64,000 nt of DNA. Origin: Thermoflexus hugenholtzii JAD2. GTDB lineage: Bacteria; Chloroflexota; UBA11872; UBA12225. Positions 7,450 through 61,229 of the stretch are shown here, one piece after another. The position numbers and the translations under genes are program-made. The notes beneath the pieces are model-generated. The model was not told the DNA's origin, ran no database searches, and was given only the letters and a program-made list of their open reading frames with translations. The stretch's first letter is position 1. Each line of letters begins with the position of its first letter. The stretch is from assembly GCA_945865725.1 (NCBI GenBank), contig CAMBEO010000003.1, positions 5,111 through 69,110 of the forward strand, read 5' to 3'.

Positions 7450-7500
7450 TGGTGCTTCCCTCTCCCGCCGCAGCGGGGGAGGGACTGAGGGTGGGGGCGC
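7450..7500 (+). repeat. Mosaic GC-rich repeat, module A (CTTCCCTCTCCCGCCGCAGCGGGGGAGGGACTGAGGGTGGGGG)
   Basis: Exact copy of the 42-nt hairpin module that recurs across the window. Confidence 0.9.
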
Positions 7501-7527
7501 TTCCCGTCTCGGCGAAAGTCTCGATCG

Positions 7528-9039
7528 TCACTGGATGCCCCCGCGGTCGTCGAAGCGCATCGACATGAGCGCGGCCCCGATCCGCCGCCCGCCCCACGTG
7601 ACGAGCACGATCAGGCCGATGGCGGCGGGCAGCACCCAGCCAAACTCCTCGCGGATGAAGTCGTGCCTCAACTCGCCGAACGCGAGCGACCAGCCATCAC
7701 GATTGCGGGCGACCTCGTACTCCTGCATCGCCGCCACGTACTCCCCGCGCTTGAAGAAGGCCTTCGCGAGGCCCACGTGCGCCAGCTCGAAGTTGCTGTC
7801 CCGGCGCAAGACCTCGCGCCAGATCGCCTCCGCCTCCTGGTACTTGCCGTCGAAGTGCAGGCGGCTACCTCGGTGCAGCAGCTCCGCGAACTCGGTCGGG
7901 CGGAACGCCTGCACGTTGTTGCGGTTCGCATCCAGGACGTAGATCCGGCCGTTCGGACCGACCGCCAGGCTCTGGGGCAGCTCGAACTTCCCGCGCTGCG
8001 CCCCCCGCCCGCCGAAGATCGCCAGCAAGTTCGCGGACTGGTCGTACTGGTAGACGCGCCCGCTGTTGAAGTCGAGCGCCGACACCATCCCCTGCGAGTC
8101 GGTCGTGACGTCCACGAATTGCGGCTTGACCTGCTGCCCGGCGCGCCACTCGACCTCGCCGTACTTCCGGTTCCCCGTGGTGTACACGTCGTTGCCGATC
8201 GAGTTCAGCTTCTTGATCTGGTCGACGGCACCCAGCGGCGACACGGTGTAGATGAACCCCCGCTCGTCCACGAACATGTTGGCGTGATGCGTCGGCAAGG
8301 TCTTCGAGATCTGCTTCTTCTGCACCTCCGTCGTGAAGATGCGGATCAACAGGCGGCCAAGGTCGAACGTCAGGCGGTTCGCCCCGAAGAAGCCACGGAA
8401 GGTGCCCTCGCCGTCCAAGAGGAAGATCCCCCGGAAGTCACCGCCCCCGTTCAGCACGTAGAGGTATCCCCGACGATCGATCACCACCTTGTTCGGCTGG
8501 TAGACCTGGTCGTCGACGAGGAGCCGGGAGGACGGCTTCCCGAACTGCTTGACAAATTCGCCCGACGGGGTGAACAGGACGACCCGGCCATTGCCCCGGT
8601 CGGCGATCCACACGTCCCCCTGATGGGTGACGAAGACCCCCTCGGGCGCGTTCAGCTTCGCCGGTCCGTCAGGGGTGCCGAACTGCATGACGAACGTGCC
8701 GTCCGCATTGAACTTCAGTACGCGGTTGTTCCCGGTGTCCGCGATCCAGACGAACCCGAGCGAGTCGATGAAGATGTCGGCCGGGTTCTTGAACGTCCCC
8801 GACTTCTGGTACATCCCGTCTATTTCGAAGTCGTAGATGTATGGCAGCGGCGACGCGAGCGAACGGCTGTCCTTGTCGAGCGTCCACGAGTACTCGCGAT
8901 CCGCCGACGCGACGGGTGCGAGGCCCGGGGCCAGGGCAAGGCAGATCGCTGCGAGCGCACCGCCGACCGCCGCGCCCCAAGCACGAAGCCTCGGTGCGTG
9001 GCGAGGGGGCGCCAGAGGGCGTTGTCGCTGCCCGGTCAC
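7528..9039 (-). CDS. NHL-repeat beta-propeller protein with C-terminal TPR-like segment and TM anchor
   Basis: Repeated NHL-like blades (...GFVWIADTGNNRVLKF..., ...GDVWIADRGNGRVVLF..., ...GRIYVLDANRNNVQAF...). GTG start at 9039 forms a GTGA overlap with the upstream permease stop; a signal-peptide-like segment follows. Confidence 0.7.
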   Translation of the reverse strand: MTGQRQRPLAPPRHAPRLRAWGAAVGGALAAICLALAPGLAPVASADREYSWTLDKDSRSLASPLPYIYDFEIDGMYQKSGTFKNPADIFIDSLGFVWIADTGNNRVLKFNADGTFVMQFGTPDGPAKLNAPEGVFVTHQGDVWIADRGNGRVVLFTPSGEFVKQFGKPSSRLLVDDQVYQPNKVVIDRRGYLYVLNGGGDFRGIFLLDGEGTFRGFFGANRLTFDLGRLLIRIFTTEVQKKQISKTLPTHHANMFVDERGFIYTVSPLGAVDQIKKLNSIGNDVYTTGNRKYGEVEWRAGQQVKPQFVDVTTDSQGMVSALDFNSGRVYQYDQSANLLAIFGGRGAQRGKFELPQSLAVGPNGRIYVLDANRNNVQAFRPTEFAELLHRGSRLHFDGKYQEAEAIWREVLRRDSNFELAHVGLAKAFFKRGEYVAAMQEYEVARNRDGWSLAFGELRHDFIREEFGWVLPAAIGLIVLVTWGGRRIGAALMSMRFDDRGGIQ

Positions 9040-9964: not shown

Positions 9965-10110
9965 TGATCTGGGGGTGGGGCGGTGGTGGTGACGGAGGGT
10001 GGGGGTGGTGCTTCCCTCTCCCGCCGCAGCGGGGGAGGGACTGAGGGTGGGGGTAAGGGTGGTGGTAAGGGTGGTGGTGACGGAGGGTGGGGGCAGTCCT
10101 TCGCTCGCCG
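9965..10110 (+). repeat. Mosaic repeat cluster (modules F-A-F plus 'cagtccttcgctcg' tail)
   Basis: GGTGGTGGTGACGGAGGGTGGGGG flanks module A on both sides. Lies between the two permease genes. Confidence 0.85.
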
Positions 10111-16982: not shown

Positions 16983-17714
16983 ATGGCCCGTGTTGACGGC
17001 CGCGCGCCCGACGCCCTGAGGATCACGCGGATCACTCCGGGCGTGCTTGACCACGCCGAGGGCTCGGCCATGATCGAGGTGGGCGGCACGCGCGTCCTCT
17101 GCGCGGCCAGCGTCGAGGAGTCGCAGCCCCCCCACCTCAAGGGCACCGACGGGGGTTGGGTCACGGCCGAGTACGCGATGTTGCCCCGCTCCACCCACAC
17201 TCGCAGGCAGCGCGACGCCACCCGGGGCCGGATTGACGGGAGGACCCACGAGATCCAGCGCCTGATCGGGCGGTCGCTGCGCGCATCGATGGACCTGTCC
17301 CGACTCGGGCCGCGTTCGATCTACATCGACTGCGACGTGATCCAGGCGGACGGTGGCACCCGCACCGCCGCGATCACGGGCGGCTATGTCGCACTCGCAC
17401 TCGCTGTCGAGTGGGTCATGCGCCGCCGGCATCTCAACAAGTCGCCTCTGGTCACCCAGGTCGCTTCCGTCAGCGCCGGGATCGTCGGCGGTGACCCGGC
17501 CCTCGACCTCTCGTATGAAGAGGACTCGCGAGCCGACCTAGACTTCAACGTCGTCATGACCGCTGCTGGCGAGTTCATCGAGGTCCAGGGCACGGCCGAA
17601 CGTCGCTCCTTCGATCGCGCGGGCCTGGCCTCCATCCTTGACCTTGCCGAGGGCGGGATACGGACGCTGTTCGCGATGCAACGCGACGCCATCGCTGCCG
17701 GTCGCCCGCGGTAG
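16983..17714 (+). CDS. rph: Ribonuclease PH
   Basis: MARVDGRAPDALR...DCDVIQADGGTRTAAITG, the canonical RNase PH core; AAAGGA RBS. Confidence 0.9.
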   Translation: MARVDGRAPDALRITRITPGVLDHAEGSAMIEVGGTRVLCAASVEESQPPHLKGTDGGWVTAEYAMLPRSTHTRRQRDATRGRIDGRTHEIQRLIGRSLRASMDLSRLGPRSIYIDCDVIQADGGTRTAAITGGYVALALAVEWVMRRRHLNKSPLVTQVASVSAGIVGGDPALDLSYEEDSRADLDFNVVMTAAGEFIEVQGTAERRSFDRAGLASILDLAEGGIRTLFAMQRDAIAAGRPR

Positions 17715-17715
17715 G

Positions 17716-17960
17716 CGCGGGGACGGTGGTGCTTCCCTCTCCCGCCGCAGCGGGGGAGGGACTGAGGGTGGGGGCCGTCCCGTCCAGGGGGTGAGGGACT
17801 GAGGGCGGTGGTGCTTCCCTCTCCCGCCGCAGCGGGGGAGGGACTGAGGGTGGGGGCCACCCGGGTGCCGCCGGGGTGGGGGGCTTGGTCCGCGGGCATC
17901 CCTGCCCGCCGGGGTGGGGCCTGAGTTCGTCGCCCCGGGCGGGGAACCGTCTAGCCTCAC
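17716..17960 (+). repeat. Mosaic repeat cluster: tandem module A x2 plus module B (TTGGTCCGCGGGCATCCCTGCCCGCCGGGGTGGGG)
   Basis: Two near-identical module A copies 78 nt apart, then module B. Intergenic between convergent rph and murD. Confidence 0.9.
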
Positions 17961-17961
17961 G

Positions 17962-19329
17962 TCACCCCAGGCCGCGGACGAGCGCGTTGAACTGGTCCCC
18001 GCGATCGAACTCGTTCCTGAACATCCCGAACGAGGCGCAACCCGGCGACAGCAGGACGGCGCCCCCAGCGACCGCAAGCGCTGACGCCTGGGTGACCGCG
18101 TCCGCGAGCCGTGCGTGCCGGCCACGCACCAGGCCGTGCCCGGCGTGTGCCACGAGCCGATCCGTCGCGGAACCCTCGAGCAGTACGACGTCGGTGACCG
18201 GGCCTCCCGTTCGCGACAGCGCGGCGCCAAGTCCCGCGAACTCAAGGCCCTTGTCGGCTCCCCCCGCGATCAGCACGATCGGCCCCGGTATCGACGCGAG
18301 GGCCGCCAATGTCGCGTCAGGGGTCGTTGCCGCCGTGTCGTTCACGTACCGGACGCCCCGGAGCACGCGCACGAGCTCCTGCCGGTAGGCGACCCCGCCG
18401 AACGTGCGCATCGTGGCCTCAATCGCCTCCTCGCTGGCACCGACCTCCCGAGCGAGCGTTGCCGCGCAGCGCGCGTTCGCGAGGTTGTGCGGCCCGGCCC
18501 AGCCGCGGGCGTTGTCAGTGAAGCCGGGCACGGGCGTCTCCGGTCCGAACCACGCCACGGCGCCCTGCACGCCGCGAGCAAGGTCGACACTCCGTTCGTC
18601 CTCCCGGTTCAACGCCACCACGCCTTCCTTGCCCTGGTACATGAAGGCCCGTCGTTTCGCGTCGACGTATGCCTCCATCGACACGTACCGGTTCAGGTGG
18701 TCTGGCATCAGATTTGTCACCGCCGTCACTCGCGGGCTTTGTTCGATCGCGTCAAGACCCTCCAACTGGAAGCTGGAAAGTTCCAATACGACCGTCGTGC
18801 CCGTCCCGATCCGGTCGATCTGGTCGAGCGCCGAAATGCGAAGGTTTCCGGCGACGACCACGTCCACGCCAGCCGCGCGCAGGATCTCCCCGACAAGGGT
18901 CGTCGTCGTCGTCTTCCCCTTCGTCCCGGTAATCCCGATCACATGGCGCGACGGGCAGGCGACGAGGAAGAGCGACATCTCCATGTGAACGGGGATTCCT
19001 CGCGCCTGCGCCTCGCGCACGAACGGCGATTCACGAGGCACTGCGGGGTTCCGCACGACCAGGTCGACGCCGTCGAGGTCCGCCTCGTCGTGGCGACCGA
19101 GGGTGTACGCGACGTCGAGTCCTCGGAGCGACTCCAGCGAACCTTGGAGGCGATCAGAGGGTTGCAGGTCAGTGACGCGCACCGAGGCGCCTGACCGGGC
19201 GAGGAAGCGCGCCACCCCAGCACCGCCCCCATGGACCCCTAGCCCGACGACAAGGGCGCGCTTGCCGGCAAACGTCTGCGAAGCGGGCGGCTTGGCGCGT
19301 TGGCCCGGCGCATCCGCGATCAGGTCCAT
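17962..19329 (-). CDS. murD: UDP-N-acetylmuramoyl-L-alanine--D-glutamate ligase
   Basis: N-terminal Rossmann segment (GKRALVVGLGVHGGG), ATP-binding motif GITGTKGKTTTT, and C-terminal Mur-ligase domain ending SPGCASFGMFRNEFDRG. ATG at 19329 with GGGAGG upstream. Confidence 0.85.
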   Translation of the reverse strand: MDLIADAPGQRAKPPASQTFAGKRALVVGLGVHGGGAGVARFLARSGASVRVTDLQPSDRLQGSLESLRGLDVAYTLGRHDEADLDGVDLVVRNPAVPRESPFVREAQARGIPVHMEMSLFLVACPSRHVIGITGTKGKTTTTTLVGEILRAAGVDVVVAGNLRISALDQIDRIGTGTTVVLELSSFQLEGLDAIEQSPRVTAVTNLMPDHLNRYVSMEAYVDAKRRAFMYQGKEGVVALNREDERSVDLARGVQGAVAWFGPETPVPGFTDNARGWAGPHNLANARCAATLAREVGASEEAIEATMRTFGGVAYRQELVRVLRGVRYVNDTAATTPDATLAALASIPGPIVLIAGGADKGLEFAGLGAALSRTGGPVTDVVLLEGSATDRLVAHAGHGLVRGRHARLADAVTQASALAVAGGAVLLSPGCASFGMFRNEFDRGDQFNALVRGLG

Positions 19330-19548
19330 CAGGCCTCCCGGCCGCCGCATCCCGACCGCCGGACGTCGTGGGTCTCCCTGGAGGCCGGTCGATGGGAGAC
19401 TTGCGCCATTCAGGTGCGAGACGGCAGTCCCTGGCCCGACACGCCGTCGGCGCGGGAGTATACTTCTACCCCTGCGCGCGACATTGGCGCGACTGCCCGC
19501 GTGGCGCCGCCAAGGTGACGCGCAACTCGACGGGGCCGCATCGCCAGC

Positions 19549-20128
19549 GATGGACGACTACCACCCAGCCGACCGCCCGTACCCGAGTCCTGCGACGCAG
19601 CGACGCACGGGAGAGATCTGGAAGGCTCGCCTTGGCCTCGGGTTCGTCAGCGCGCTGACGCTCGTGAGCGCCGCCGTGATGTTTCGCCTCGCCGGGCTCG
19701 GGATCGGGGCGGCGGTGAGCCCGTTCCAGTCGGCGGCCCCGACCTCCACGACGGTGGGCGGGGCTCGCGGAACCGTGCTCGCATCGTCAGCCTCGTTGAC
19801 CGCAACGCCGGGTCCGGGCGCGACCTTCGCTCCCGCCGGGGCATCGCCTTCGCCTTCCCCGAACCGGACCCTCGTACCCGGCCAGTCGACCACGCCGGTG
19901 CCCGGCCAGTCGAATCCGATCACCCCCCAGGTGACCGGAACGCCGATGCGGTCGCCCACGGCCACGCTAGTCACGGTCGCCACGCGTGAACACGCGGTCG
20001 CCTCGGGTGACACCCTCGGCGCGATCGCCGTCCGGTATGGAACGACCGTCGACACGATCGTCCGCTTGAACGACTACAAGGACCGGAACCAGACGCTGAA
20101 CATCGGGCAGAAGGTCAAGGTGCCGTAG
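19549..20128 (+). CDS. LysM-domain peptidoglycan-binding protein with N-terminal TM segment
   Basis: C-terminal LysM (VASGDTLGAIAVRYGTTVDTIVRLNDY...LNIGQKVKVP) after a Pro/Thr/Ser-rich linker. Start is uncertain (ATG 19549, weak RBS). Confidence 0.5.
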
Positions 20129-20279
20129 GCGCACCAATCGGGTCGCGTGTCGCTGGTACCCTCCTCCGAAGCCGGTCGTACGCGTCCGAGTGATCGCCTC
20201 TAACCCGAGCATCCTTCCTTCCCGTTCGGACGGTCTGACCGACGTCCCGCGCGGGGCACGCCCGACAGGAGACCCCACC

Positions 20280-21179
20280 ATGAGCGCAACGCGTGCCGGT
20301 TTCATCGGCCTCGGCAAGATGGGTCGCCCGATGGCCCTCAACATCCACAAGGCCGGGTTCCCGTTGACCGTTGCTAATCGCAGCCAGGCGGTCGTCGCTG
20401 ACCTCGCCTCCCACGGTGCGACGGCCGCTGCGACCCCCGCGGAAGTAGCCGCGCACGCCGACCTCATCTGCCTGTGCCTGCCGATGCCGGCACATGTCGA
20501 GGAAGTCGTCCTCGGCCCGAACGGCGTGATCGAAGGCATCCGTCCCGGCGCCATCGTGGTCGACTTCAGCACGATCGGCCCGTCTACCTGCCGTCTCGTC
20601 GCCGAGCGGCTAAAAGCCAAGGGTGCTCAGTACATCGACGCCCCGGTGTCCGGAGGGACCACCGGTGCCGTGGCCGGAACCCTGACCGTCATGGTCGGCG
20701 GTGACCAAGACGCGTACGACCGCGCCCTGCCTCTCCTGCAGTCGGTCGGACGGAAGATCGTCCATGCCGGGCCGGTCGGCGCAGGCGCTGTCGTCAAGCT
20801 CATGAACCAGCTCCTGGTCGCGATCAACCTCGCCGGCGCCGCCGAGGCAATGGTCCTCGGCACGAAGGCCGGCGTCGACCCGACACTCCTGTACGAGACG
20901 ATCGCGTCGGCCACTGGGAACAGCTTCCAGATGGCCCGCAACTTCCCCGACCTGATCCTCAAGGGCAAGTTCGATCCCATGTTCTCGGTGAACCTCCTCC
21001 ACAAGGACGTCGCCCTCGCCGTGGACGTCGGCCGGGAACAGCACGTGCGTCTCCTGCTTTCAGCCCTGGTCCAGCAGATCTTCGCCGAGGCCAGGGACGC
21101 CGGACACGGGGACGAGGACATCGCCGCGGTGATCCGTCCCCTTGAGAAGCTGGCGGGCACCGAGGTGCGCGCGCGCTAG
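20280..21179 (+). CDS. NAD(P)-dependent oxidoreductase, 3-hydroxyisobutyrate dehydrogenase / tartronate-semialdehyde reductase family
   Basis: GFIGLGKMG Rossmann motif and a HIBADH-type C-terminal domain. AGGAGA RBS 9 nt upstream of the ATG. Confidence 0.85.
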   Translation: MSATRAGFIGLGKMGRPMALNIHKAGFPLTVANRSQAVVADLASHGATAAATPAEVAAHADLICLCLPMPAHVEEVVLGPNGVIEGIRPGAIVVDFSTIGPSTCRLVAERLKAKGAQYIDAPVSGGTTGAVAGTLTVMVGGDQDAYDRALPLLQSVGRKIVHAGPVGAGAVVKLMNQLLVAINLAGAAEAMVLGTKAGVDPTLLYETIASATGNSFQMARNFPDLILKGKFDPMFSVNLLHKDVALAVDVGREQHVRLLLSALVQQIFAEARDAGHGDEDIAAVIRPLEKLAGTEVRAR

Positions 21180-21204
21180 GCGCCTGGCCGCGCGAGGGCG
21201 GGCG

Positions 21205-22443
21205 ATGCGGTTGCGCCACCTTGCCCTCGCGCACTTCCGGCGCTTCGCCGCCTTCGACCACGCCTTCGCTCCCGGCCCGACCATCATCTGGGGCGACAAC
21301 GGCGCCGGCAAGTCCAACCTCGTCGAGGCGGCATACCTCCTCGCGACGAGCCGGTCGCCATACTCCTCGTCCGAACGCGACTTGATCGCTTGGGACTGCC
21401 CCCACCGGCCCGCGTTCGCACGCACGATCGGCGACTGCGAGAGCCATTCTCGCCCCGTCCGAATCGAGATTCGCCTCGTCGAACCCGGGGGCAACCACTC
21501 CCTAGCCGACCCGGGTGCGGCGCCTGGTCCGGACGAGCCGTACCACCCGCCGTCGGTGCGGCGCCGCGCCCTGATTGACGGGCAGCCGAAGGCGATCGGC
21601 GAGATCCTGGGCCACTTGAACGCCGTTCATTTCTCGCCCGAGGAGGTCGAACTCGTCGCCGGCCCGGGGGAGAGGCGCCGACGCTTCCTTGACATCGCCC
21701 TCTCGCAACTCGATCGCGCCTACGTGCGTTCGCTGCGCCGCTTCCAGAGGGCGATCGTCCAGCGAAACGCCATGTTGCGGCGTCTCCGGGACGATCCCGC
21801 ATTGCCCCGGACGCAGCTCGACCCATGGGACGCGGAGGCCGTCGCGCACGGCGCGGTCGTCATCGCGTGTCGCCTCCGCGCCGTCAGCCGACTGAACGAG
21901 GCCCTGGCCAGCCTTGACGGCACCGCACCAGGGGCGGCGCCGATCCGGGCCGACTACGTGCCCTCAGTCGACCTGCGCGCGATCAACGTGCCCGACGGGC
22001 CGTACATCCGAGGATGGGACGAAGGTGACCCACAGGTCGTGGCTGTCGCAAGTGCCATGGCTCGCGCCATGACGGCTTCCCGCGGGCGCGACCTGGGCGC
22101 CGGAACCACGCTCGTTGGACCGCACCGCGACGACCTCGTGGTCCGGGCCGCCGGGATCGATCAGCGCCTATACGGTTCGCGCGGACAGCAGCGCACCGCG
22201 GCCCTCGCCATGAAGGTCGCGGAGGCGCACCTCATGGCTGAGGTGACCGGCGAAAAGCCGGTCCTCCTCCTTGACGACGTGATGTCCGAACTCGATCCGG
22301 GTCGCCGGCAGTTCGTCGAGGCGCTCGCGATCGATACCGACCAGGCAATCGTCACCGGCACTGAGGCCGCCGTGTTCAGCGACCGATTTCGCGGCGCCGC
22401 ATCGACCTACCGCCTCCAACACGGGAATCTCGTCCGGGCATGA
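21205..22443 (+). CDS. recF: DNA replication and repair protein RecF
   Basis: Walker A GDNGAGKSNLVEA, signature SGGQQRTAALAMKVAE, Walker B LLLDDVMSELD. Confidence 0.85.
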   Translation: MRLRHLALAHFRRFAAFDHAFAPGPTIIWGDNGAGKSNLVEAAYLLATSRSPYSSSERDLIAWDCPHRPAFARTIGDCESHSRPVRIEIRLVEPGGNHSLADPGAAPGPDEPYHPPSVRRRALIDGQPKAIGEILGHLNAVHFSPEEVELVAGPGERRRRFLDIALSQLDRAYVRSLRRFQRAIVQRNAMLRRLRDDPALPRTQLDPWDAEAVAHGAVVIACRLRAVSRLNEALASLDGTAPGAAPIRADYVPSVDLRAINVPDGPYIRGWDEGDPQVVAVASAMARAMTASRGRDLGAGTTLVGPHRDDLVVRAAGIDQRLYGSRGQQRTAALAMKVAEAHLMAEVTGEKPVLLLDDVMSELDPGRRQFVEALAIDTDQAIVTGTEAAVFSDRFRGAASTYRLQHGNLVRA

Positions 22444-22530
22444 CCCGATAACGAGTGCGCCTGAGGAGACCTGGGATGGTTTCGTCAGGGTGGTACGCTG
22501 GCCCACGGGGCATGGGTTGGCCCCGAGGAT

Positions 22531-23196
22531 TTGCCCGCCCGTGAGGACGCCTCCCCTGTGACCACCGCGCGCACTTCCACGACCAGGAGCCGCGCCACAT
22601 CCGCCCGGCTCGGCCGAGAGGCATCCCTCGCCTCCCAGCGAGACGCGCGCCTGCGCAGTCGTCGCCGGCGCCTGGTCACCTACTGGGCGTTCGGTGGAGC
22701 CACCCTCATCGCTATCGTGGGGTTGGTCGTGTGGGTCTCGACTCCCCAATCCACCGCCATCGGCGAATTGCAGGACTTCCCGATCCAAGGACGCACGCAC
22801 ATCCAGCGAGGGCAGAACCACCCCGCCTACAACAGCGTTCCTCCTACCTCCGGATGGCATTACGCCGACCAGGTCGCGACCGCAGGCGTCCATGTCGATC
22901 CCATCCCGAACGAAGTGCAAGCGCACAATCTCGAGCATGGCGAGGTGATGGTTCAGTACGATTGCCCGACGGGATGCCCGGAAATGGTGTCGGCTCTGGA
23001 ACGAATTGTCCGCACGTATCCCCGGAAGGTCGTCCTGGCGCCTTACCCGGGAATAGGTCGGCCCATCGCCCTGACGAGCTGGGGACGCTTGAAATACCTT
23101 GACCGTCCCGACGAGGCGGCAATTCGCTCGTTCGTGGCAGCCTTCAAGGACAAGGGTCCCGAGGTCTTCCCCGACGAACCGATGGCCACGCCGTGA
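22531..23196 (+). CDS. DUF3105-like membrane-anchored protein
   Basis: TM helix followed by a conserved HNLEHGEVMVQYDCPTGCPE region. Alternative (TTG) start, so start is uncertain. Confidence 0.45.
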   Translation: MPAREDASPVTTARTSTTRSRATSARLGREASLASQRDARLRSRRRRLVTYWAFGGATLIAIVGLVVWVSTPQSTAIGELQDFPIQGRTHIQRGQNHPAYNSVPPTSGWHYADQVATAGVHVDPIPNEVQAHNLEHGEVMVQYDCPTGCPEMVSALERIVRTYPRKVVLAPYPGIGRPIALTSWGRLKYLDRPDEAAIRSFVAAFKDKGPEVFPDEPMATP

Positions 23197-23732
23197 GCAG
23201 TGACATCCCATCGGCTAGCCTGTCAAGCGCCGACCACGACCCTGGCACCTACCGGGTCGCACCGCCCGACCCGGTTTTGGTCGGGGGATCCACCAGGCCA
23301 CTCGTACGTCGGCATCGCGACCCGCGCACGACCTTTCTCGTGGTCGTCGGGTTGATCACGGTCCTGTACGTCGCCACCTTCGTGCGCGGCCTCTGGTGGC
23401 AGTGGAAGGGCATCATCCTGGCGCAGCCAGCCACCGCCCCGGTCGTGGCTGGTGCGCCGCGGAGCGCGGCGGCACGCCCGGTCGGCGCCGCGCCCGGCAA
23501 CGCCGCCGCACGGAAGCCCCTCACCCGCACCGACGCGCCGGCGCCCCGCAACGTCACTGACGAGCGCGGTGTGACGTACGACGCGAACGGCGTCGCGGTC
23601 ATGGGAATCGATGCCGACCCGAGCGGCGTATACAACGTGCCCCCGGGGCGCCAGCTCCGCATCGGCGGTCCCGAAGGCGCGCTCTTCGATGTCGGCGACG
23701 GCGGGCGCCTGGTGCCCGCCGCGAAGCGCTAG
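23193..23732 (+). CDS. Hypothetical membrane protein
   Basis: GTGA overlap with the upstream stop; a single TM helix. Confidence 0.35.
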   Translation: MSSDIPSASLSSADHDPGTYRVAPPDPVLVGGSTRPLVRRHRDPRTTFLVVVGLITVLYVATFVRGLWWQWKGIILAQPATAPVVAGAPRSAAARPVGAAPGNAAARKPLTRTDAPAPRNVTDERGVTYDANGVAVMGIDADPSGVYNVPPGRQLRIGGPEGALFDVGDGGRLVPAAKR

Positions 23733-23879
23733 TAGCCGGTCGCGCCACGCACCACGCCGGTTCCTCAGAGGATTCTGATCCCGCCTGCCCGGCGGGCATC
23801 CCTATACTCGCGCCAAGGGGAGGATCGCGCCGCGTAGTGCGCGTGCGGTTCCGTCAATCCCCGCGGAAAGGCTGTCCTC

Positions 23880-26429
23880 ATGGGCGCCCTCGAGAAAATC
23901 GCCGCCATCATCGGGCGACGGTGGCGATCGCTTCTGGTCCTCCTCGTCCTCGGCGCGGCCTTCTTCCTGTGGTTCGTGCCGAACTACGACACTGCGATGC
24001 CATACGTCCTGTACGGGGCGTACCTCCTCTTCCAGCTGTTGTTCGCCGTCCTGTTCATGATCCTCCAGTTCGCCGCCCTGTTCTGGTTCCTCGGGCGCGG
24101 GCGAACCTACTGGGTCATGCCGGGCGAGACCGGCATCGGCTTCAAGGACTACCGGGGCCAGAACGACGTCCTCGAGACCGCCGAACGATGGGTCACCCTC
24201 CTTCGCGGCGTGAAGGAGTTCAAGCGCATGGGCGGGGAGGTCAGTCGGGGACTCCTCCTCGTCGGGCCTCCCGGTACCGGCAAGTCGTACCTCGCGCAAG
24301 CGATCGCGACCGAGGCGGGCGTGCCGTTCGGCTACACCTCCGCCTCTTCGTTCCGTGCCATGTTCATGGGCATGGACGTCCTCATCGTCTGGCGCCTCTA
24401 CCGCAAGGCCCGCAACCTCGCGAGGAAGCACGGCGCCTGCATCCTGTTCATCGACGAGATCGACTCCATCGGCGCCGCCCGGACCGCCGGGATGATGGGC
24501 GGCGGCGGGATGATGGGCGGTCTCATGGGTGGGGGTGGTGCCCTCAACCAGCTGCTCATGGAGATGGACCCGCCCCGCCTCAGCGAGGGGTGGAAGGAAC
24601 GCCTCCTGCGGCGCCTCGGCATCCTCCGCCGTCCCGTCATCCGGCCCAACGTCGTGACCATGGGCGCGACGAACATCGTCGAGACCCTCGACCAGGCCCT
24701 CCTCCGCGCCGGGCGCTTTGATCGCCAGCTCACCATCGACCCGCCCGACTCCGAGGGGCGCAAGGACATCATCGAGTACTACTTGTCGAAGGTCCGCCAC
24801 GAGGACATGCCGATCGACCGCATGGCCGGCGACACCATCGGCTACACGCCCGTCACGATCAAGTACATCGTCAACGAGGCGACCGTCGTGGCCCACTTCA
24901 ACGGGCGCGACGCCATCACCTACTTCGACTTCACCGAGGCGCGCGAGGCCCACGAATGGGGCATCAAGCAGCCGATCCGGGGCATGAAGCTCGAGGAGAA
25001 GCGTCGCCTCGCCTACCATGAGGCGGGCCATGCCTTCGCCATGGCGATCCTCCAGCGAGACCAGTTCCGCGTGTCAAAGGTCACGATCCAGCGCCACGGG
25101 CGCGCCCTCGGCTTCGCGGCGCCAAAGCCCGTCGAGGAGCGCTACACGCAGACGAATGACGAGGTCCTCTCCGAGATTCAGGTTTGCCTCGCAAGTCGCG
25201 CCGCCGAGGAGCTCTTCCTCGACACGCAACTCACCGGCGTGACCAGCGACCTGCAACACGCCACGCGCCTCGCCTTGGCCTACCTGGGCATCTATGGCAT
25301 GGGGGGCAGCTTCTACTCGCACCTCGTTGGCGGCAACATGATGGGGAGCGTCCCCGAGAAGCGCCGCGCCGAGCAGCTCCTCGACGAGCAGTACACCCGC
25401 GTCAAGACCCTGCTGTCCGTCCACTCCGACACCGTCCATGCCATCGCCCAAGCCTTGGTCCAGCGAGGCGAGCTGATCGGCGACGACATCCAGCGGATCA
25501 TCGACGAGAAGGAGCGGGAACGGCAGAGCCAGGACTTGACGCTCCGCGAGGACACCCGGCGCATTGCCTACCACGAGGCGGGCCACGCGGTCGCCCAGGC
25601 AATCCTCCTTCGCCGGCAGGACATCGGACGCGTCTCCATCGTCAGCACCACCGAACCGCAGACGTTCAACGAGCTTCGCCCCCTCACCAGTCAGCAGTCG
25701 TACTCACGCGACGAAGTCCTCGCCGAGATCCAGGTCCGCCTCGCCAGTCGGGCCGCCGAGGAGCTCTTCCTGGACCTCGTCCTTGATAACTCCGCGACCG
25801 ATATCAAGCGGGCACGCGACCTTGCGCGCTACGTCATTACCTACATGAACCCGTCGGACGTCCTGTTCGTCTACGAGCCGGAAACGCCCCAGGAGGAGGA
25901 GCGCCAAGGTGGGGACGGCAGTCCGGACACCTCGACGACCACGACTGGCACCGCAGACCCTGCCGCAGCGTCCGTCACCCCTCGCACTCGACGGCCGGCC
26001 ACGGGTGGTGACGCGCGTGTCCGCCGCGAGGTCGACTCCCTTCTGCGTGCGCAATACGACACCGTCAAGGCCCTGTTGCGCGACTGCGAGGTGGAGGTGC
26101 ATCGCCTCGCACGTGCCCTCGCCGAGAAGGGCGAGCTATCAGGCACGGACGTTCGCCGCATCCTCAACGGCAAGTTGGGGGGACGCTCCTCGGCGGCCGT
26201 GATCGCGACCGCCCAGGCGATCGCGAAAGGCCTCGGCGACGATCCTGTCTCGGCGGCGATTGGCCAGGTGACGCACGGCCCCGCTGCCGGCGTTCCAGCG
26301 GTCCACGCGTCGTCCGCGGTGACGGATGGCCCAACCTCGCCGATCACCGGCGGGACGTCGGCGCTCCCAGTCCCTGCCCATCCGGACGCCGTCACGCCGC
26401 CACTGCCGATGGACGGCACGACCACCTAG
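23880..26429 (+). CDS. FtsH-like AAA+ zinc metalloprotease with tandem duplicated M41 peptidase domains
   Basis: Two N-terminal TM helices with no periplasmic domain. Walker A GPPGTGKS and Walker B ILFIDEID. Gly/Met-rich insertion (MMGGGGMMGGLMGGGG). Two HEAGH motifs (AYHEAGHAFAMAIL and AYHEAGHAVAQAIL), each with a downstream Asp (SDLQHAT and ATDIKRA). Confidence 0.85.
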   Translation: MGALEKIAAIIGRRWRSLLVLLVLGAAFFLWFVPNYDTAMPYVLYGAYLLFQLLFAVLFMILQFAALFWFLGRGRTYWVMPGETGIGFKDYRGQNDVLETAERWVTLLRGVKEFKRMGGEVSRGLLLVGPPGTGKSYLAQAIATEAGVPFGYTSASSFRAMFMGMDVLIVWRLYRKARNLARKHGACILFIDEIDSIGAARTAGMMGGGGMMGGLMGGGGALNQLLMEMDPPRLSEGWKERLLRRLGILRRPVIRPNVVTMGATNIVETLDQALLRAGRFDRQLTIDPPDSEGRKDIIEYYLSKVRHEDMPIDRMAGDTIGYTPVTIKYIVNEATVVAHFNGRDAITYFDFTEAREAHEWGIKQPIRGMKLEEKRRLAYHEAGHAFAMAILQRDQFRVSKVTIQRHGRALGFAAPKPVEERYTQTNDEVLSEIQVCLASRAAEELFLDTQLTGVTSDLQHATRLALAYLGIYGMGGSFYSHLVGGNMMGSVPEKRRAEQLLDEQYTRVKTLLSVHSDTVHAIAQALVQRGELIGDDIQRIIDEKERERQSQDLTLREDTRRIAYHEAGHAVAQAILLRRQDIGRVSIVSTTEPQTFNELRPLTSQQSYSRDEVLAEIQVRLASRAAEELFLDLVLDNSATDIKRARDLARYVITYMNPSDVLFVYEPETPQEEERQGGDGSPDTSTTTTGTADPAAASVTPRTRRPATGGDARVRREVDSLLRAQYDTVKALLRDCEVEVHRLARALAEKGELSGTDVRRILNGKLGGRSSAAVIATAQAIAKGLGDDPVSAAIGQVTHGPAAGVPAVHASSAVTDGPTSPITGGTSALPVPAHPDAVTPPLPMDGTTT

Positions 26430-26444
26430 CGTCCCTACCCCCTC

Positions 26445-26500
26445 TCCCGCGCCAGCGGGGGAGGGGGTAGGGGTGGGGGTATTCCCCCCGCTCCCGAGCC
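26445..26500 (+). repeat. Mosaic repeat, variant of module A (CCCTCTCCCGCGCCAGCGGGGGAGGGGGTAGGGGTGGGGG)
   Basis: Hairpin-forming variant between the convergent ftsH-like and rsmG genes. Confidence 0.8.
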
Positions 26501-26519
26501 CGCATCGGGCGCGTCCGAC

Positions 26520-27907: not shown

Positions 27908-27949
27908 GAAGGAACCCCTGAAATGGTAGCAGCGGCGCGCCGCGTTCGT

Positions 27950-28010
27950 TCACTCCCCTCACCCGCGCAACGTGGGAGTATTCAGCAGGGGGTGGGGGTC
28001 GTGGCGCTTC
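27950..28010 (+). repeat. Mosaic repeat, module C (CCCCTC(A/T)CCCGC...GTGGGAGT(A/T)TTCAGCAGGGGG)
   Basis: Same module recurs at 36668 and 58690. Confidence 0.8.
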
Positions 28011-28016
28011 CCCGGC

Positions 28017-29438: not shown

Positions 29439-29440
29439 GC

Positions 29441-31578: not shown

Positions 31579-31609
31579 GCGCGTACTATAGGCATCGGCC
31601 CCGGGAGCG

Positions 31610-32608: not shown

Positions 32609-32624
32609 CAGTCGTTGTGCTTCC

Positions 32625-32835
32625 CCCTACCGTTGGTCCGCGGGCATCCTTGCCCGCCCGGGGGAGGGGTAGTGGTGCTTCCCTCTCCCGCCGCAGCGGG
32701 GGAGGGACTGAGGGTGGGGGTAAGGGTGGTGGTGACGGAGGGGAGGGGCAGTCCTTCCCTCTCTCGTTGGTCCGCGGGCATCCTTGCCCGCCCGGGGGTG
32801 AGGGGAGGGGCAGTCCTTCGCTCGACGACACGAAC
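32625..32835 (+). repeat. Mosaic repeat cluster (modules B-A-F-B)
   Basis: TTGGTCCGCGGGCATCCTTGCCCGCC twice, module A once and GGTGGTGACGGAGGGG once. Lies between a divergent membrane-protein gene and mgtC. Confidence 0.9.
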
Positions 32836-36659: not shown

Positions 36660-36800
36660 CGCCGGCGCACCTCGCTCCCCTCTCCCGCCGGCGTGGGAGT
36701 TTTCAGCAGGGGGCGGTGCTTCCCTCTCCCGCCGCAGCGGGGGAGGGATCGCGTACGCGGATAACGATGGTGGGGGTCGTATTGGGGCAGGGGGTGGGGG
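36660..36800 (+). repeat. Mosaic repeat cluster (modules C-A-D)
   Basis: Module C, a truncated module A, then module D (CGCGTACGCGGATAACGATGGTGGGGG). Confidence 0.85.
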
Positions 36801-36845
36801 CCTCGCCGATCACGACTGGCCCGGCGCGCCCTCTCCCGACCAGTG

Positions 36846-41740: not shown

Positions 41741-41749
41741 CGGCGCGCA

Positions 41750-41990
41750 GTATCGCACCGGGGGAGGCCCTTCCCTCTCCCGCCTCGGCGTTGGGGGTGC
41801 TCGTGGCGCCCCCACCATCGTTATCCGCGTAGGCGACCCCTCTCCCGCCGTAGCGTCGGCAGGCACTAATCGCAGCAGATGGGAGGGGTGGGTGGTGCTT
41901 CCCTCTCCCGCCGCAGCGGGGGAGGGATTGAGGGTGGGGGCCGTCCTGCTCCCCTCTCCCGCCGGCGCGTGCGGGCGCGCATCCGGGTCG
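41750..41990 (+). repeat. Mosaic repeat cluster (modules A-D-C'-A-A')
   Basis: Four hairpin modules, including a near-perfect module A at about 41893 and the reverse of module D (CCACCATCGTTATCCGCGTA). Confidence 0.85.
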
Positions 41991-43329: not shown

Positions 43330-43440
43330 AGAACTGGGAGCGTTCCCCTTCGCGTCCCCCGGCCGTCCCTACTGGGGAGCGCTGGCGCCTTGCCGCCGGC
43401 GCGACGCCCCAATGCCTCCCCGTCCCCCGGCCGTCCCTAC
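43330..43440 (+). repeat. Mosaic repeat, module E x2 (TCCCCCGGCCGTCCCTACTGGG)
   Basis: Direct duplication 75 nt apart, between the convergent metallopeptidase and folD genes. Confidence 0.85.
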
Positions 43441-43462
43441 TGGGAATGTCGGCGTCCGTTCG

Positions 43463-45284: not shown

Positions 45285-45425
45285 CGGGTCCGCCGGCATC
45301 CCTGCCCGCTCCGCCCACGTCGTGCCTCCCCCACTCGGGTTGGCGCGGGCCATGTCCGTCCCACTTCTCCACCCGTGAGAACTTTTCCGCAAGCGCCGGA
45401 CGACGCGTACGCGGATGACGAGGGA
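45285..45425 (+). repeat. Degenerate mosaic repeat fragments (B-like, E-like, D-like)
   Basis: GCCGGCATCCCTGCCCGC, CGGGTTGGCGCGGGC and CGCGTACGCGGATGACGAGGG match modules at other loci with mismatches. Confidence 0.6.
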
Positions 45426-53789: not shown

Positions 53790-54010
53790 TGCCGGCCAGT
53801 GCCTCCCTCTCCCGTTGGTCCGCGGGCATCCTTGCCCGCCGGGGTGGGGTCTGGGTGCTTCCCTCTCCCGCCGCAGCGCGGGAGTGGATGGGGGGTGGCG
53901 CTTCCCTCTCCCGCCGCAGCGGGGGAGGGACTGAGGGTGGGGGCTAGGGACTGAGGGTGGGGGTCCTTCTCCCCTCTCTCGCCGCAGCGTTGGGGGGGCG
54001 CTTCTTGCGG
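53790..54010 (+). repeat. Mosaic repeat cluster (modules B-A-A plus 'GGGACTGAGGGTGGGGG' duplication)
   Basis: Lies between fhaB and fhaA inside the cell-division gene cluster. Confidence 0.9.
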
Positions 54011-54045
54011 CAGATGGAAGGGGGCCTCCGCCCTTGCGAGAAAAG

Positions 54046-56029: not shown

Positions 56030-56160
56030 CTGGGTTGGCGCGGGCACGGGGACGGCCCCCTTCCATTGGCCGCAAGCGCCCCGCGCTGCGGCGGGAGAGG
56101 GAAGCACGGCCCCCACCTTAGTTACCCGAGTACTCGGTCCCTCCCCGCCAGGGGGGACGC
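56030..56160 (+). repeat. Mosaic repeat cluster (modules E'-G-A(rev)-D(rev))
   Basis: ATTGGCCGCAAGCGCCCCGCGCTGCGGCGGGAGAGGGAAGCAC and TTAGTTACCCGAGTACTCGGTCCCTCC. Overlaps the 3' end of glf. Confidence 0.85.
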
Positions 56161-57291: not shown

Positions 57292-57480
57292 CGACCACGG
57301 GACGGCCCCCACCCTCGTTATCCGAGTACTCGGTCCCTCCCCCGCTGCGGCGGGAGAGGGAAGCACCACCGCCCCTCCCCCGGGGGACGTGGTTGCCCGC
57401 GGACCAACGGGAGAGGGAAGCACTTCCCCCACCCTCAGTCCCTCCCCCGCTGCGGCGGGAGAGGGAAGCACCACCGCACG
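57292..57480 (+). repeat. Mosaic repeat cluster (reverse-orientation modules D-A-B-A)
   Basis: Three GGGAGAGGGAAGCAC cores in reverse orientation plus TTGCCCGCGGACCAACGGG. Overlaps the stop region of the glycosyltransferase. Confidence 0.9.
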
Positions 57481-58669: not shown

Positions 58670-58730
58670 ATCGGCCAATCCCCTCCCTCGCGAAGCGCGG
58701 GAGTTTTCAGCAGGGGGTGATGGGCGGGCA
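58670..58730 (+). repeat. Mosaic repeat, module C variant
   Basis: CCCTCCCTCGCGAAGCGCGGGAGTTTTCAGCAGGGGG. Confidence 0.8.
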
Positions 58731-58873
58731 TCGCCGACCCCCGTGGCCCCACAATATAGCGAGGCCCGCGCCGTGACTGGCACGCCGCCTGCCGTCGCCC
58801 GTGATCGCGGCGCGAACGAGGACGCCGCGCGCCGCCACCGGTGGTGCGCCCACGCACTGACGGGCCGCCCGCC

Positions 58874-59633
58874 GATGAACGAACGCGACGTGCGCGCCCT
58901 CCTCGACGGCGTCGCCCGGGGCGACATGCCCGTGGACGACGCGGTCCGGCGCTTGCGCGCCCTCGACACGGCTGACCTGGGCTTCGCGCGGGTCGACCGC
59001 CATCGCGCCCTTCGCCGGGGCTTTCCTGAGGTCATCTTTGCCCAAGGAAAGACTCCCGACCAGATCGCGTCCATCGCCCGAAGCCTGTACGACAGCGGTT
59101 CGCCCGTCCTTGCGACACGATGCGACCCGGACGGTGCCGCCGCCTTGGTCGCGGCGATCCCTGGTGCCACGTACGACCCGGTCTCGCGTTGCGCCGTCGC
59201 CGTGCCCCACCCGATCGATCCGGTCCCCGGGCGCGTCGTCGTCGCCACCGGTGGCACGACCGACATCCCGGTCGCCGAGGAGGCCGCGATCACTGCCTCC
59301 CTCACCGGCGTCGCCGTCGACCGCCTGTGGGACGTTGGCGTCGGCGGCATCCACCGCATGCTGGCGAATGTCTCGCTCTTTGATGACGCCGATGCGATCA
59401 TCGCCGTCGCAGGCATGGAGGGTGCCTTGCCGAGCGTCATCGCCGGCCTCGTCGCCTGCCCGGTGATCGCCGTCCCCACCAGCGTCGGGTACGGCGCGGC
59501 CTTCAACGGCCTCGCGCCGCTCCTCGGCATGCTCACCGCCTGCTCGCCCGGCGTGGCCGTGGTGAACATCGACAACGGCTTCGGCGCCGGCTACCTCGCC
59601 GGGACGATCGCCCGCCGCCTGGCCCGCCCCTGA
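58874..59633 (+). CDS. larB: Nickel-pincer cofactor biosynthesis protein LarB (PurE-like carboxylase/hydrolase)
   Basis: PurE-like core (…VVVATGGTTDIPVAEEAAITASLTG…AVAGMEGALPSVIAGLVACPVIAVPTSVGYGA…). Start is uncertain: ATG 58874 chosen, with GTG 58767 as the alternative. Confidence 0.65.
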
Positions 59634-59669
59634 CCGGTGGCGCGCCCCTTCCCGACGGGAGCCCAGACC

Positions 59670-61229
59670 ATGCGCGACTCGACCGACCCTGCGACGCCCG
59701 TGATGGCGTATTTCGAGTGCTTCTCCGGCGCGAGCGGCGACATGATCCTCGGGGCCCTCGTCGATGCCGGATGGCCCGTTGCGGCCATGCGCGCCACCTT
59801 CGAGGCAGTCGGTCTCGGCGGTTGGGCCCTCGATGTCGCCCCCACCAAGAAGGGCGCCCTTCGAGCGACCCGCGTCACCATCCGCGTGACCGAACCCCAA
59901 CCCGAGCGGTCCGTTCGCGAGATCGTTCCCATGATCGAGGCAAGCACCCTCGCCGCGACCGTCAAGGCGACAGCCATCGCCCTCTTCCGCGAGCTTGCCG
60001 ACGTGGAGGCACTACAGCACGCGGACGAGCCGGAGAACGTGCACTTCCACGAGGTCGGAGCCGTCGACTCGATCCTTGACATCATCGGCGCGGTCGCCGG
60101 CCTCGAAGCCCTGGGCGTCAATCGCGTTCGCGTGTCGCCGATGAACGTCGGCGGGGGCTTGGTGAACACGCGCGACGGCATCCTTCCCGTCCCCGGGCCA
60201 GCCACCATCGAGGTCCTGCGGCGACGCGGCATCCCGATCTACTCGACGGAGTACGGACCCGAGTTCCTCACCCCCACGGGCGCCCTCGTCCTCGCGTGCC
60301 TCGCCGACGACAGCGGCCCCTTCCCCGCGATGACCGTCACGCGCATCGGCTACGGCGCCGGCCAGAAGGACTTCCGGATCCCGAACGTCCTGCGGGTCTC
60401 CATCGGTCCTGCCCTCCCCGGTCCCGACCCGGTCGGACGCGTCCGCGCGGCCCTTGCCGCCATCGACCCGGTTCGCGCCAGTGCGGACCACGGCCCGCAT
60501 GAGCCTCAAGCGGTGCCTGACGTCGGGTTGGATGACCACGGGCACGACCACGGGCACGGGCACGACCACGGGCACGGGCACGGGCACGGGCACGACCACG
60601 GGCACGGGCACGACCACGGGCACGGGCACGGGCACGACGGCGAACACGGGCAGGGCGCCTCTTTAAATTGGCCGCAAGCGCCCCGCGCTGCGGCGGGAGA
60701 GGGGAGAACCGCCCCCTCTCACTTCCGAGGTGTCGCACCGGTGACGAGTTCCGTGGACGCCGAACGCCTCGGGTACCTCGAGGACGAGGTGGTCCAACTC
60801 GAGACGAACGTCGACGACATGAGCGGCGAGTGGTTCGGTTACCTCTCCGAGACCTTGATGGCCCGGGGTGCCCTCGACGTCACCATGCTCCCGGCGACGA
60901 TGAAGAAGGGGCGACCTGCGACGGTGATTTCCGTCCTCGTGCGCCCCGAACGGGCTGAAGAGGCGATCACCGCCCTGTTCCGCGAGACGACTACCTTAGG
61001 CGTGCGCGTGGGTTCAACCAGGCGACTGATGCTTCCCCGGCGGTCCGACGTGATAGAGACCGAGTACGGCACGATCCGCGTCAAGGTCGCGTTGCACGGA
61101 ACGGTCGTCCGCGGCATCGCACCCGAGTACGAGGACTGCCGGGCCGCGGCCTCCCGCGCCGACGTGCCCCTTCAAGTTGTCATGGCCGCCGCGTCCGACG
61201 AGTGGCGACGCCGGCTCCGCACGGCCTGA
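59670..61229 (+). CDS. larC: Nickel insertion protein LarC (DUF111/TIGR00299 family) with His-rich linker
   Basis: N-terminal YFECFSGASGDM motif and a His-rich tract (HGHDHGHGHDHGHGHGHGHDHGHGHDHGHGHGHD). A mosaic repeat is inserted in frame after it. The C-terminal domain is intact. ATG at 59670 has a GGGAG RBS; a GTG at 59637 is also possible. Confidence 0.8.
   Translation: MRDSTDPATPVMAYFECFSGASGDMILGALVDAGWPVAAMRATFEAVGLGGWALDVAPTKKGALRATRVTIRVTEPQPERSVREIVPMIEASTLAATVKATAIALFRELADVEALQHADEPENVHFHEVGAVDSILDIIGAVAGLEALGVNRVRVSPMNVGGGLVNTRDGILPVPGPATIEVLRRRGIPIYSTEYGPEFLTPTGALVLACLADDSGPFPAMTVTRIGYGAGQKDFRIPNVLRVSIGPALPGPDPVGRVRAALAAIDPVRASADHGPHEPQAVPDVGLDDHGHDHGHGHDHGHGHGHGHDHGHGHDHGHGHGHDGEHGQGASLNWPQAPRAAAGEGRTAPSHFRGVAPVTSSVDAERLGYLEDEVVQLETNVDDMSGEWFGYLSETLMARGALDVTMLPATMKKGRPATVISVLVRPERAEEAITALFRETTTLGVRVGSTRRLMLPRRSDVIETEYGTIRVKVALHGTVVRGIAPEYEDCRAAASRADVPLQVVMAAASDEWRRRLRTA
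60655..60725 (+). repeat. Mosaic repeat module G located inside the larC reading frame
   Basis: AATTGGCCGCAAGCGCCCCGCGCTGCGGCGGGAGAGG is identical to the copy at about 56045. Translated in frame as ...SLNWPQAPRAAAGEGRTAPSHF... Confidence 0.85.

Follow-up and report, generated by a model that had tools for sequence, protein, structure and literature searches.

A dense, array-forming family of BoxC/PIT/TM-type repeats in a Chloroflexota genome

Introduction

E. coli has been known since the 1990s to carry repeats of the BoxC, PIT or TM kind; they are present in hundreds of genomes and are poorly understood. This report concerns a family of short, GC-rich, hairpin-forming repeats in a 64,000-nucleotide stretch of a Thermoflexus hugenholtzii JAD2 assembly (contig CAMBEO010000003.1, positions 5,111 to 69,110; hereafter the window). 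Judged by their architecture, the window units are members of the BoxC/PIT/TM class and a new variant of it, modular, array-forming, very dense and carried by Chloroflexota.

The E. coli BoxC element has been re-described as the PIT element and as TM_ECO, with the form CCCTCNCCC N3-6 GGGNGAGGG N3 GGGNGAGGG (Holder et al. 2015, PMC4666352), after earlier work by Bachellier and by Hoyne and Maher (2000, 2002). TM_ECO is an intergenic class II purine-motif intrastrand triplex sequence that forms its triplex in vitro and has 3610 occurrences in 262 proteobacterial genomes (PMC4666352). The E. coli copies have no transposase or integrase remnant nearby and no associated gene class, and they are linked to local genomic instability (PMC4666352). 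Purine-motif triplexes are not formed by RNA (PMC4666352), and according to Hoyne and Maher (2002), as cited in PMC4666352, E. coli PIT elements had neither terminator nor promoter activity. Kaplan et al. (2016) read the same E. coli elements as a switch between G-quadruplex (G4), hairpin and duplex, termed HPGQ (PMC5100583). In the archaeal Methanomicrobiaceae, repetitive potential quadruplex sequences lie next to a C-rich tract, and similar repeats occur in Deinococcus (PMC8044849). GTAG-type repetitive extragenic palindromes (REPs) have been reported from Chloroflexi (PMC3733652).

Architecture of the units

The basic unit is about 50 nt long, lies on one strand and starts with a conserved 10-nt leader. 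In unit A (TCCCTCTCCC-GCCGCAGC-GGGGGAGGGA-CTG-AGGGTGGGGG) a C-rich arm and the purine arm complementary to it enclose a first loop, and a short second loop leads to a G-rich arm, the mirror of the purine arm. Its parts are as follows.

Leader: GGTGGTGCTT
C-rich (Y) arm: TCCCTCTCCC
Loop 1: GCCGCAGC
Purine (R) arm: GGGGGAGGGA
Loop 2: CTG
Third (H) arm: AGGGTGGGGG

Loop 1 consists of 2 bp and a CGCA tetraloop. The third arm mirrors the R arm exactly, the internal A being opposed by a T. The sense strand gives a 12-bp hairpin with one G.U or G.T pair, in place of which the antisense strand has an A.C mismatch. The Watson-Crick arm bears a fixed T.G mismatch and the match between purine arm and third arm is perfect, as in the 'mm' types of E. 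coli. Folding energies are low, from -23 to -32 kcal/mol as RNA and from -12 to -14 as DNA, in line with the stable stem-loops predicted by the first-pass annotation of the window; the fold z-scores of the units are only -1.3 to -2.7, because the composition of the unit is extreme.

That annotation had described seven hairpin modules, A to G, recurring in shuffled combinations. The family is indeed a mosaic and the hairpin is real, but the hairpin makes up two thirds of the unit and its third, G-rich arm had been overlooked; the 'modules' are one scaffold with differing loop inserts. Module B (GCGGGCA-TCCT-TGCCCGC) and module G are hairpins nested in loop 1, between the Y arm and the G-rich arms, and module D is a palindromic hairpin nested in loop 2. 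The D hairpin shows a compensatory change, with CGCGTACGCG in four copies and CGAGTACTCG in another four. Module F represents extra copies of the third arm and module C a degenerate unit in which the purine arm is split or decayed. Module E has none of the features of the three-arm scaffold and its membership is doubtful. Clusters are head-to-tail arrays of up to about five units that usually close with a partial Y arm.

When the modules were searched in the window with up to three mismatches, all were found where they had been placed, and 100 dinucleotide shuffles gave no match (chance expectation 0). Module A has eight copies (seven exact over 43 nt), B four, D three, E two, F three and G two, and C has one exact and two diverged copies (27946 and 58671). 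A covariance model built on unit A and run over the window and the adjacent contig returned 12 strong copies in the window, 10 on the + strand and two on the - strand, and nine more within the 9.5 kb of the same contig past the window end. The density is about one strong unit per 3.5 kb.

The window units also conform to a broad, ITxF-style definition of class II triplexes (Y-R-H order, R complementary and H mirrored, with G opposite G and A or T opposite A, stems of 6-15 nt and at most one mismatch). A scanner written for this analysis, which demands nine triads with at most one mismatch per pairing, reported 12 motifs in the window, none in 20 dinucleotide shuffles and one in a reversed-order control, and the arms extend to 10 triads. 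With 10-nt arms loop 2 is 3 nt long and the structured loop 1 is 8 nt, against an ITxF range of 1-6 nt; loop 2 reaches 20 nt in D-type units. Canonical G4 motifs (G3+ N1-7 G3+ N1-7 G3+ N1-7 G3+) are likewise concentrated in the repeat loci, which hold 11 of the 22 in the window and occupy 3.9% of its sequence.

The resemblance to BoxC/PIT/TM_ECO extends over several levels. Both follow the class II order of Y arm, loop, R arm, 3-nt loop and mirror G-rich arm on one strand; the Y arm is CCCTCTCCC in both; the tolerated mismatch sits at the identical Watson-Crick position and the purine and third arms are matched. In either case the copies are numerous, nearly identical and mostly intergenic, no transposase lies nearby, and the window units show no link to transposons, phages or plasmids. 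Further shared traits are inverted pairs of two subtypes (here in loci of metagenome-assembled genomes, MAGs), deletions between arms and copy numbers that differ sharply between close relatives. The first-pass annotation did not recognise its module set, yet this kind of repeat had already been described (PMC4666352); what that annotation had named as counting against it, a match to a known repeat family, therefore holds in part.

Differences from TM_ECO are equally clear. Loop 1 of the window units is 8 nt long and structured (GC clamp and CGCA), the third arm is GGGTGGGGG and not GGGNGAGGG, a 10-nt leader is present, the loops host nested hairpins (B, D and G) and arrays grow to about five units. 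E. coli has 23 units per 4.6 Mb, about equally on + and -, whereas the window is about 50 times denser and strand-biased, and BoxC/TM_ECO belongs to Proteobacteria while the window belongs to Chloroflexota. The strict TM_ECO regular expression has no match in the window, with one match each in two other contigs (L023 and L093). BLAST of the consensus unit, a query too short and of low complexity, found no match in E. coli genomes. Rfam, which the first-pass annotation had proposed to search, gave nothing relevant to the units at gathering and at permissive thresholds; its sub-threshold hits are chance hairpins.

HPGQ describes the same E. coli elements as a G4 with a 5' C-rich partner, and the G-rich half of unit A, G5-A-G3-ACTGA-G3-T-G5, fits four runs of G3+ with N1-7 spacers; loops and G-tract lengths differ. 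The archaeal repeats (PMC8044849) are likewise intergenic, lineage-restricted and near-identical, and are able to form a GC hairpin with an antiparallel G-rich third strand, or a G4; one of their central loop variants, CTGAC, resembles the ACTGA of the window. They differ in that the C-rich tract lies 3' of the G-rich part (class I order) and in belonging to another domain of life.

Distribution in other genomes

The 26-nt hairpin core, loop included, occurs exactly in at least 75 contigs of a species-representative genome collection. Among the matches listed, the contigs that carry it are nearly all Chloroflexota MAGs with Ktedonobacterales, Thermomicrobiales and Sphaerobacterales labels, and one is a Neisseriaceae genome. 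The consensus of the MAG copies is AAAG-CCCCTCTCCC-GCCGCAGC-GGGGGAGGGG-TT-GGGG[A/T]GGGGG. At the third-arm position opposite A, nearly all of 73 aligned copies have A or T, two bases that purine-motif triads permit, and one has C. In a second subfamily the R arm is GGAGAGGGG and its mirrored third arm GGGGTGAGG; members frequently stand in inverted pairs with those of the first, an arrangement also seen in E. coli.

The mirror rule holds across the two subfamilies. A purine arm with one A is accompanied by a third arm with one A or T in 81 cases, and AGA by WGW in 25; 14 cases are discordant (Fisher p = 1.5e-13, for copies that are related by descent and not independent).

A JGI metagenome scan with the window-specific half-unit returned a single contig, of 51% GC and from an unrelated organism. 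It carries TGCTTCCCTCTCCC-TGC-GGGGGAGGGACTGAGGGTGGGGG, the window arms and second loop with a first loop of 3 nt. The same contig (L093) has at 2190-2260 an inverted BoxC-type pair in frame inside a 1209-aa Mfd-like open reading frame (ORF; ...SLAPSPLAPLPLGEGKIDSLSLRERVGVRE...). A scan of 2.9 million viral contigs gave three matches and no sign of a phage vector.

Gain, turnover and instability

Three loci (L086-L088) are syntenic with the window over 21 kb, with E2 proteins 77%, 77% and 66% identical and a GC content of 61-62%. None of them has a triplex motif or a covariance-model match, and 9-mers of the arms number at most one; a fourth, non-syntenic locus (E2 54%) also has neither motif nor model match. 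Orthologous gaps measure 26-176 nt in the relatives and 109-290 nt in the window. The gap between the convergent RNase PH and MurD genes is 26-27 nt in the relatives and 247 nt in the window, and that between MgtC and hyp154 is 125-176 nt and 290 nt, respectively. The gap between the convergent GidB and FtsH genes is an exception, being of similar length in all, and the place of the window's unit is taken in the relatives by ordinary GC hairpins.

A more distant MAG (L050) does have two BoxC-type units in the E2-S26 gap. In two Ktedonobacterales-labelled MAGs (L021 and L051), units of different subtypes form an inverted pair in one orthologous gap. Together with the identical copies, these comparisons indicate that the family expanded recently and turns over, and do not point to ancient conserved sites. 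Two paralogous loci of one MAG (L039 and L058) differ by about 44 nt, judged by their flanks, the outcome expected of a deletion between direct CCCCTCTCCC repeats of an inverted pair; the difference matches the instability described for BoxC in E. coli.

In the comparison of related strains suggested by the first-pass annotation, the units are missing from syntenic relatives, and near-identical contigs from other samples show no presence/absence polymorphism. Contigs of the same population in other assemblies end at units (L084 at 10053, L083 at 9995) or begin at one (L081, at 41921), which fits a high-copy family that breaks short-read assemblies. In practical terms, the units fragment assemblies and produce over-extended or chimeric gene calls in high-GC MAGs.

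Loci, orientation and genomic context

Genes were placed with the calls from an 86.6-kb metagenome contig (ENA ERZ27280310) that is 99.99% identical to the window. On this map the repeat loci are the following.

7446..7512, +: single unit A, with leader GGTGGTGCTT and, at its end, a partial Y arm CGCTTCCCGTC (Y 7457-7466, loop 1 7467-7474, R 7475-7484, loop 2 7485-7487, H 7488-7497); between the NHL stop (7528) and yip1, within the called 5' end of yip1
9973..10110, +: array F-A-F, a full unit (10011-10053) flanked by G-rich third-arm copies and a terminal partial Y arm CAGTCCTTCGCTCGCC; between two - strand ABC permease genes
17715..17948, +: array of A, degenerate R/H, A and B, with full units at 17732-17774 and 17814-17856 and the B hairpin at 17885-17914; convergent gap of RNase PH and MurD
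26435..26487, +: single variant unit, loop 1 GCGCCAGC, loop 2 GGTA; convergent gap of FtsH and GidB
27946..28012, +: C-type degenerate unit of Y arm, hairpin, TATTCAGCA and GGGGGTGGGGG; lying between E2 stop and S26 start, both genes on -
32617..32833, +: array B-A-F-B and partial Y arm; divergent gap of hyp154 and MgtC
36672..36802, +: C unit (36677-36713), A unit (36714-36776) whose loop 2 hosts a nested D hairpin CGCGTACGCG, then a G-rich tail; divergent gap of Grx and hyp, covered by an over-extended ORF call
41745..41987, mixed orientation: cluster in which a degenerate unit (41768-41808, +) and an inverted D-type piece (41809-41835, -) are joined by a full A unit (41898-41940, +) and, along with a further hairpin, a partial Y arm; divergent gap of M42 and MA_2
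43355..43444, +: two copies of module E around a GC hairpin, doubtful as a member; convergent gap of MA_2 and FolD
45285..45424, +: remnants, a B-like hairpin (45287-45309) and a D-like piece CGCGTACGCGGATGACGAGG (45404-45423)
53799..54036, +: head-to-tail array of about five units, in the order B-type, degenerate A, full A (53901-53943) with duplicated R/H tail, and two degenerate units; between fhaA and the FHA gene, both on -
56055..56150, -: G-type unit (Y arm and a different loop-1 hairpin), then a D-type piece; convergent gap, touching the glf 3' end
57297..57478, -: array A/D-B-A in the minority orientation, with full units at 57306-57365 and 57426-57468; between a glycosyltransferase gene and glf, with the called glf start and the glycosyltransferase stop inside the array
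58671..58737, +: C-type degenerate unit; divergent gap of a glycosyltransferase gene and larB
60657..60730, -: G-type unit in frame within larC, in the variable linker after a His-rich repeat

Convergent gaps hold the four loci at 17.7, 26.4, 43.3 and 56.0 kb, and divergent gaps the four at 32.6, 36.7, 41.8 and 58.7 kb. The six at 7.4, 10.0, 27.9, 45.3, 53.8 and 57.3 kb are flanked by co-directional genes, and the one at 60.7 kb is inside larC. The picture drawn by the first-pass annotation, of a dispersed, mosaic, GC-rich and mostly intergenic family of hairpins with copies in both orientations that gives rise to spurious ORF translations, was borne out, as were most of its loci; family membership could not be shown at 45.3 kb and for module E (43.3 kb). 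The two module E copies are 22 nt long and identical, their reverse complement starts with CCCAGTAGGG, containing GTAG, and no further copies were found outside 43355-43444; the pair could represent a palindromic repeat of GTAG type in its own right or have arisen by local duplication.

Copies in or against coding sequence had also been noted. One copy does lie in frame in larC; some of the other overlaps reflect over-extended gene calls. LarC homologues (73-74% identical, among those aligned) have gaps opposite approximately 24 of the residues encoded by the unit (ASLNWPQAPRAAAGEGRTAPSHF). The called glf product has its GLF (UDP-galactopyranose mutase) domain beginning only at residue 58, and the ORF at 36628 has 317 aa compared with 260 aa in its orthologues. 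The called yip1 (6644-7531, -) overlaps the NHL stop, which places unit A in frame within its first 30 codons (..PSPAAAGEGSTT..), and an in-frame GTG at about 7423, downstream of unit A, is a candidate alternative start. Copies in frame inside genuine genes are a property of the Rickettsia palindromic elements, which the occasional in-frame copies (the larC linker, and mfd in L093) recall; those elements are unrelated in sequence and architecture, and coding copies are the exception in the window family.

Taking the window together with the adjacent 9.5 kb, 19 of 21 units lie on one strand (binomial p ~2e-4). This majority strand is the one with negative GC skew (C > G), and the nine units beyond the window, in and just downstream of the atp operon, have the same orientation as +. 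All five of the convergent or divergent gaps with a strong unit share the majority orientation, so that the direction of transcription alone is insufficient as an explanation.

Origin and possible function

The window units are interpreted here as a genome-specific expansion of BoxC/PIT/TM-type repeats, a reading that as a whole is held with somewhat better than even confidence. The units are probably a structure-forming, recently expanded, recombination-prone and selfish repeat. As non-coding and probably selfish DNA they would have arrived in the lineage once it had separated from the nearest relatives sampled, and then spread, without transposon-like ends, into intergenic gaps and now and then, in frame, into tolerant coding linkers. 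They would then have grown into head-to-tail arrays, with reshuffling and deletion by slippage and recombination between their own arms. A single strand is predicted to fold into the 12-bp hairpin and then, through its third arm, into a class II triplex or, through its four G-runs, into a G-quadruplex. Folding of the G-rich strand at replication may influence where copies arise or survive, as the strong strand bias suggests.

Several observations weigh against this interpretation. Neither a mobilising gene nor defined ends nor an empty/filled site at nucleotide resolution was found; 'selfish and mobile' is therefore deduced from distribution only. Hairpin covariation amounts to 18 double-change cells, mostly at the closing pair, and is weakly informative because the arms are almost invariant; this identity could stem from recent origin or from protein recognition and not from structure. 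Triplex and G4 are inseparable on the primary sequence, and in vivo dimethyl sulfate footprinting in E. coli showed no stable triplex (PMC4666352). The association with GC skew is weak at the 8-kb MAG loci (sign test not significant, t-test p = 0.007). The MAG units also lie in 22 convergent against three divergent gaps, a preference consistent with a role at the 3' ends of genes or, more simply, with purifying selection that removes promoter hits.

A selected role in RNA, as terminators lacking a U-tract or as stabilisers of mRNA at 3' ends or within operons of the type proposed for REPs, is improbable but is the best placed of the competing accounts. It would explain why the MAG units sit mainly at gene 3' ends, as seen in the convergent gaps and in the neighbouring genes: the upstream neighbour is on the same strand in 45 cases against 13 and the downstream neighbour on the opposite strand in 43 against 16. 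It would also suit the stability of the RNA folds given above, the AAAG and TT that flank the hairpin of the MAG subtype, and the GidB/FtsH gap, where some of the GC hairpins of the relatives are followed by T-runs. The region 17001-37000 of the window is, moreover, nearly without canonical terminators, with two hairpin-plus-T-run sites against 5.8 expected from shuffled sequence. However, the window units have no U-tract on either strand, divergent promoter gaps account for four of the 14 window loci, and the relatives do without units. A terminator would have no need of the mirror third arm, RNA does not form purine-motif triplexes, and the E. coli PIT elements, in the results cited above, were inactive as terminators and promoters. 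An identity as canonical intrinsic terminators was rejected: no terminator-like site coincides with a unit between 17 and 37 kb, and the unit sequences contain no T-run.

Selection might instead act on the DNA, with the units serving as hairpin, triplex or G4 switches or as sites for nucleoid or replication proteins that pause polymerases, organise supercoiling or raise local variability. This is doubtful, and slightly more so than a role in RNA. The conservation of the mirror rule and of the A/T-only position and the strand bias agree with it, the identity of the 26-nt core, loop included, across distant lineages suggests sequence-specific recognition, and the E. coli and archaeal analogues form triplexes in vitro and switch between G4 and hairpin depending on ions. 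Yet the absence of units from close relatives with the same gene order makes them dispensable, no gene class is linked to them in E. coli, the copies in coding linkers look accidental and the in vivo footprints showed no triplex.

Mobilisation in trans of a REP/REPIN-like or miniature inverted-repeat transposable element (MITE)-like sequence, by a RAYT, an IS200/IS605-type HUH or a DDE transposase, is the least probable of these accounts: an identical-copy burst, patchy phylogenetic distribution, mosaic clustering, the inverted pairs in MAGs, a strand bias like that of single-strand transposition and the presence of GTAG-type REPs in Chloroflexi are in its favour, but it is opposed by the lack of a consistent GTAG/CGTC tag, target-site duplications and terminal inverted repeats, by the head-to-tail arrays, by the called genes of the 86-kb contig, which include no RAYT or other transposase family, by the E. 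coli copies with no transposase or integrase remnant near them and by the scarcity of viral matches.

With REPs, BIMEs and MITEs the window units share the behaviour that the first-pass annotation had seen, being short, dispersed, hairpin-forming and intergenic, occurring in mosaic clusters and breaking assemblies, but not the architecture. A match to the GTAG/CGTC tag is present, incidentally, in three of 19 units, and the conserved leader is GGTGGTGCTT. The internal hairpin is the only inverted repeat. Target-site duplications, for which that annotation had proposed a search, were sought at offsets of 0-9 nt and lengths of 3-8 nt and occurred about as often as in permuted flanks. REP/BIME identity was rejected on the tag, on the want of alternating orientation and on the lack of a RAYT among the called genes of the 86-kb contig, and MITE identity on the missing duplications and terminal repeats; REPs have no counterpart of the mirror third arm. 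CRISPR arrays and simple tandem repeats were also rejected, the units being dispersed and heterogeneous and having no unique spacers between them.

A bolder extension of the favoured reading as an expansion of BoxC/PIT/TM-type repeats is that such elements form a distinct class of mobile DNA, without terminal repeats or target duplications, copied at the replication fork in dependence on the fold of one strand (hairpin, triplex or G4) by an unrecognised enzyme of host or element, and able to cross phyla. This is unlikely, though a little less so than the selected roles just considered. If true, the recent burst in the window genome beside unit-free sister lineages of the same gene order would allow the mobilising factor to be traced by comparing gene content. 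In any case a BoxC architecture in a different phylum, dense, strand-biased and missing from syntenic relatives provides a comparative system in which gain and loss can be dated and strand rules tested against replication. Comparing the gene content of unit-rich and unit-free genomes offers a route to a candidate mobilising factor, and the genome is thus useful for asking how BoxC-type repeats spread.

The surrounding region

The window proteins are also encoded on shorter contigs of other runs, and their homologues carry Chloroflexota names. GC content in the window ranges from 63 to 73% and GC skew is negative along the whole + strand. At about 69% GC, compared with 61-62% in the syntenic relatives (E2 77% or 66% identical), the genome shows a large compositional shift across a short evolutionary distance. 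In the Rfam scan of the window, a tRNA-Lys was the sole match to pass its gathering score.

Past the window end, the contig (L085, 1-9572) has units in the atpH-atpA, atpA-atpG and atpG-atpD gaps and in those between atpC and the EPSP synthase gene and between the latter and mreB, all antisense to transcription. Near the copy in frame within larC, larB (58773-59633) lies just upstream; in larC a tandem 12/18-nt repeat (CACGGGCACGAC..., 60525-60662) codes for an HGHD-type His-rich linker; among LarC homologues this linker is highly variable in length and composition. In ftsH, a 66-nt direct repeat, 88% identical between its copies, occupies 25158-25223 and 25710-25775. Pfam finds two Peptidase_M41 stretches in the FtsH protein, which has 849 aa compared with 813-814 aa in the relatives, and the repeat suggests a partial internal duplication of the gene.

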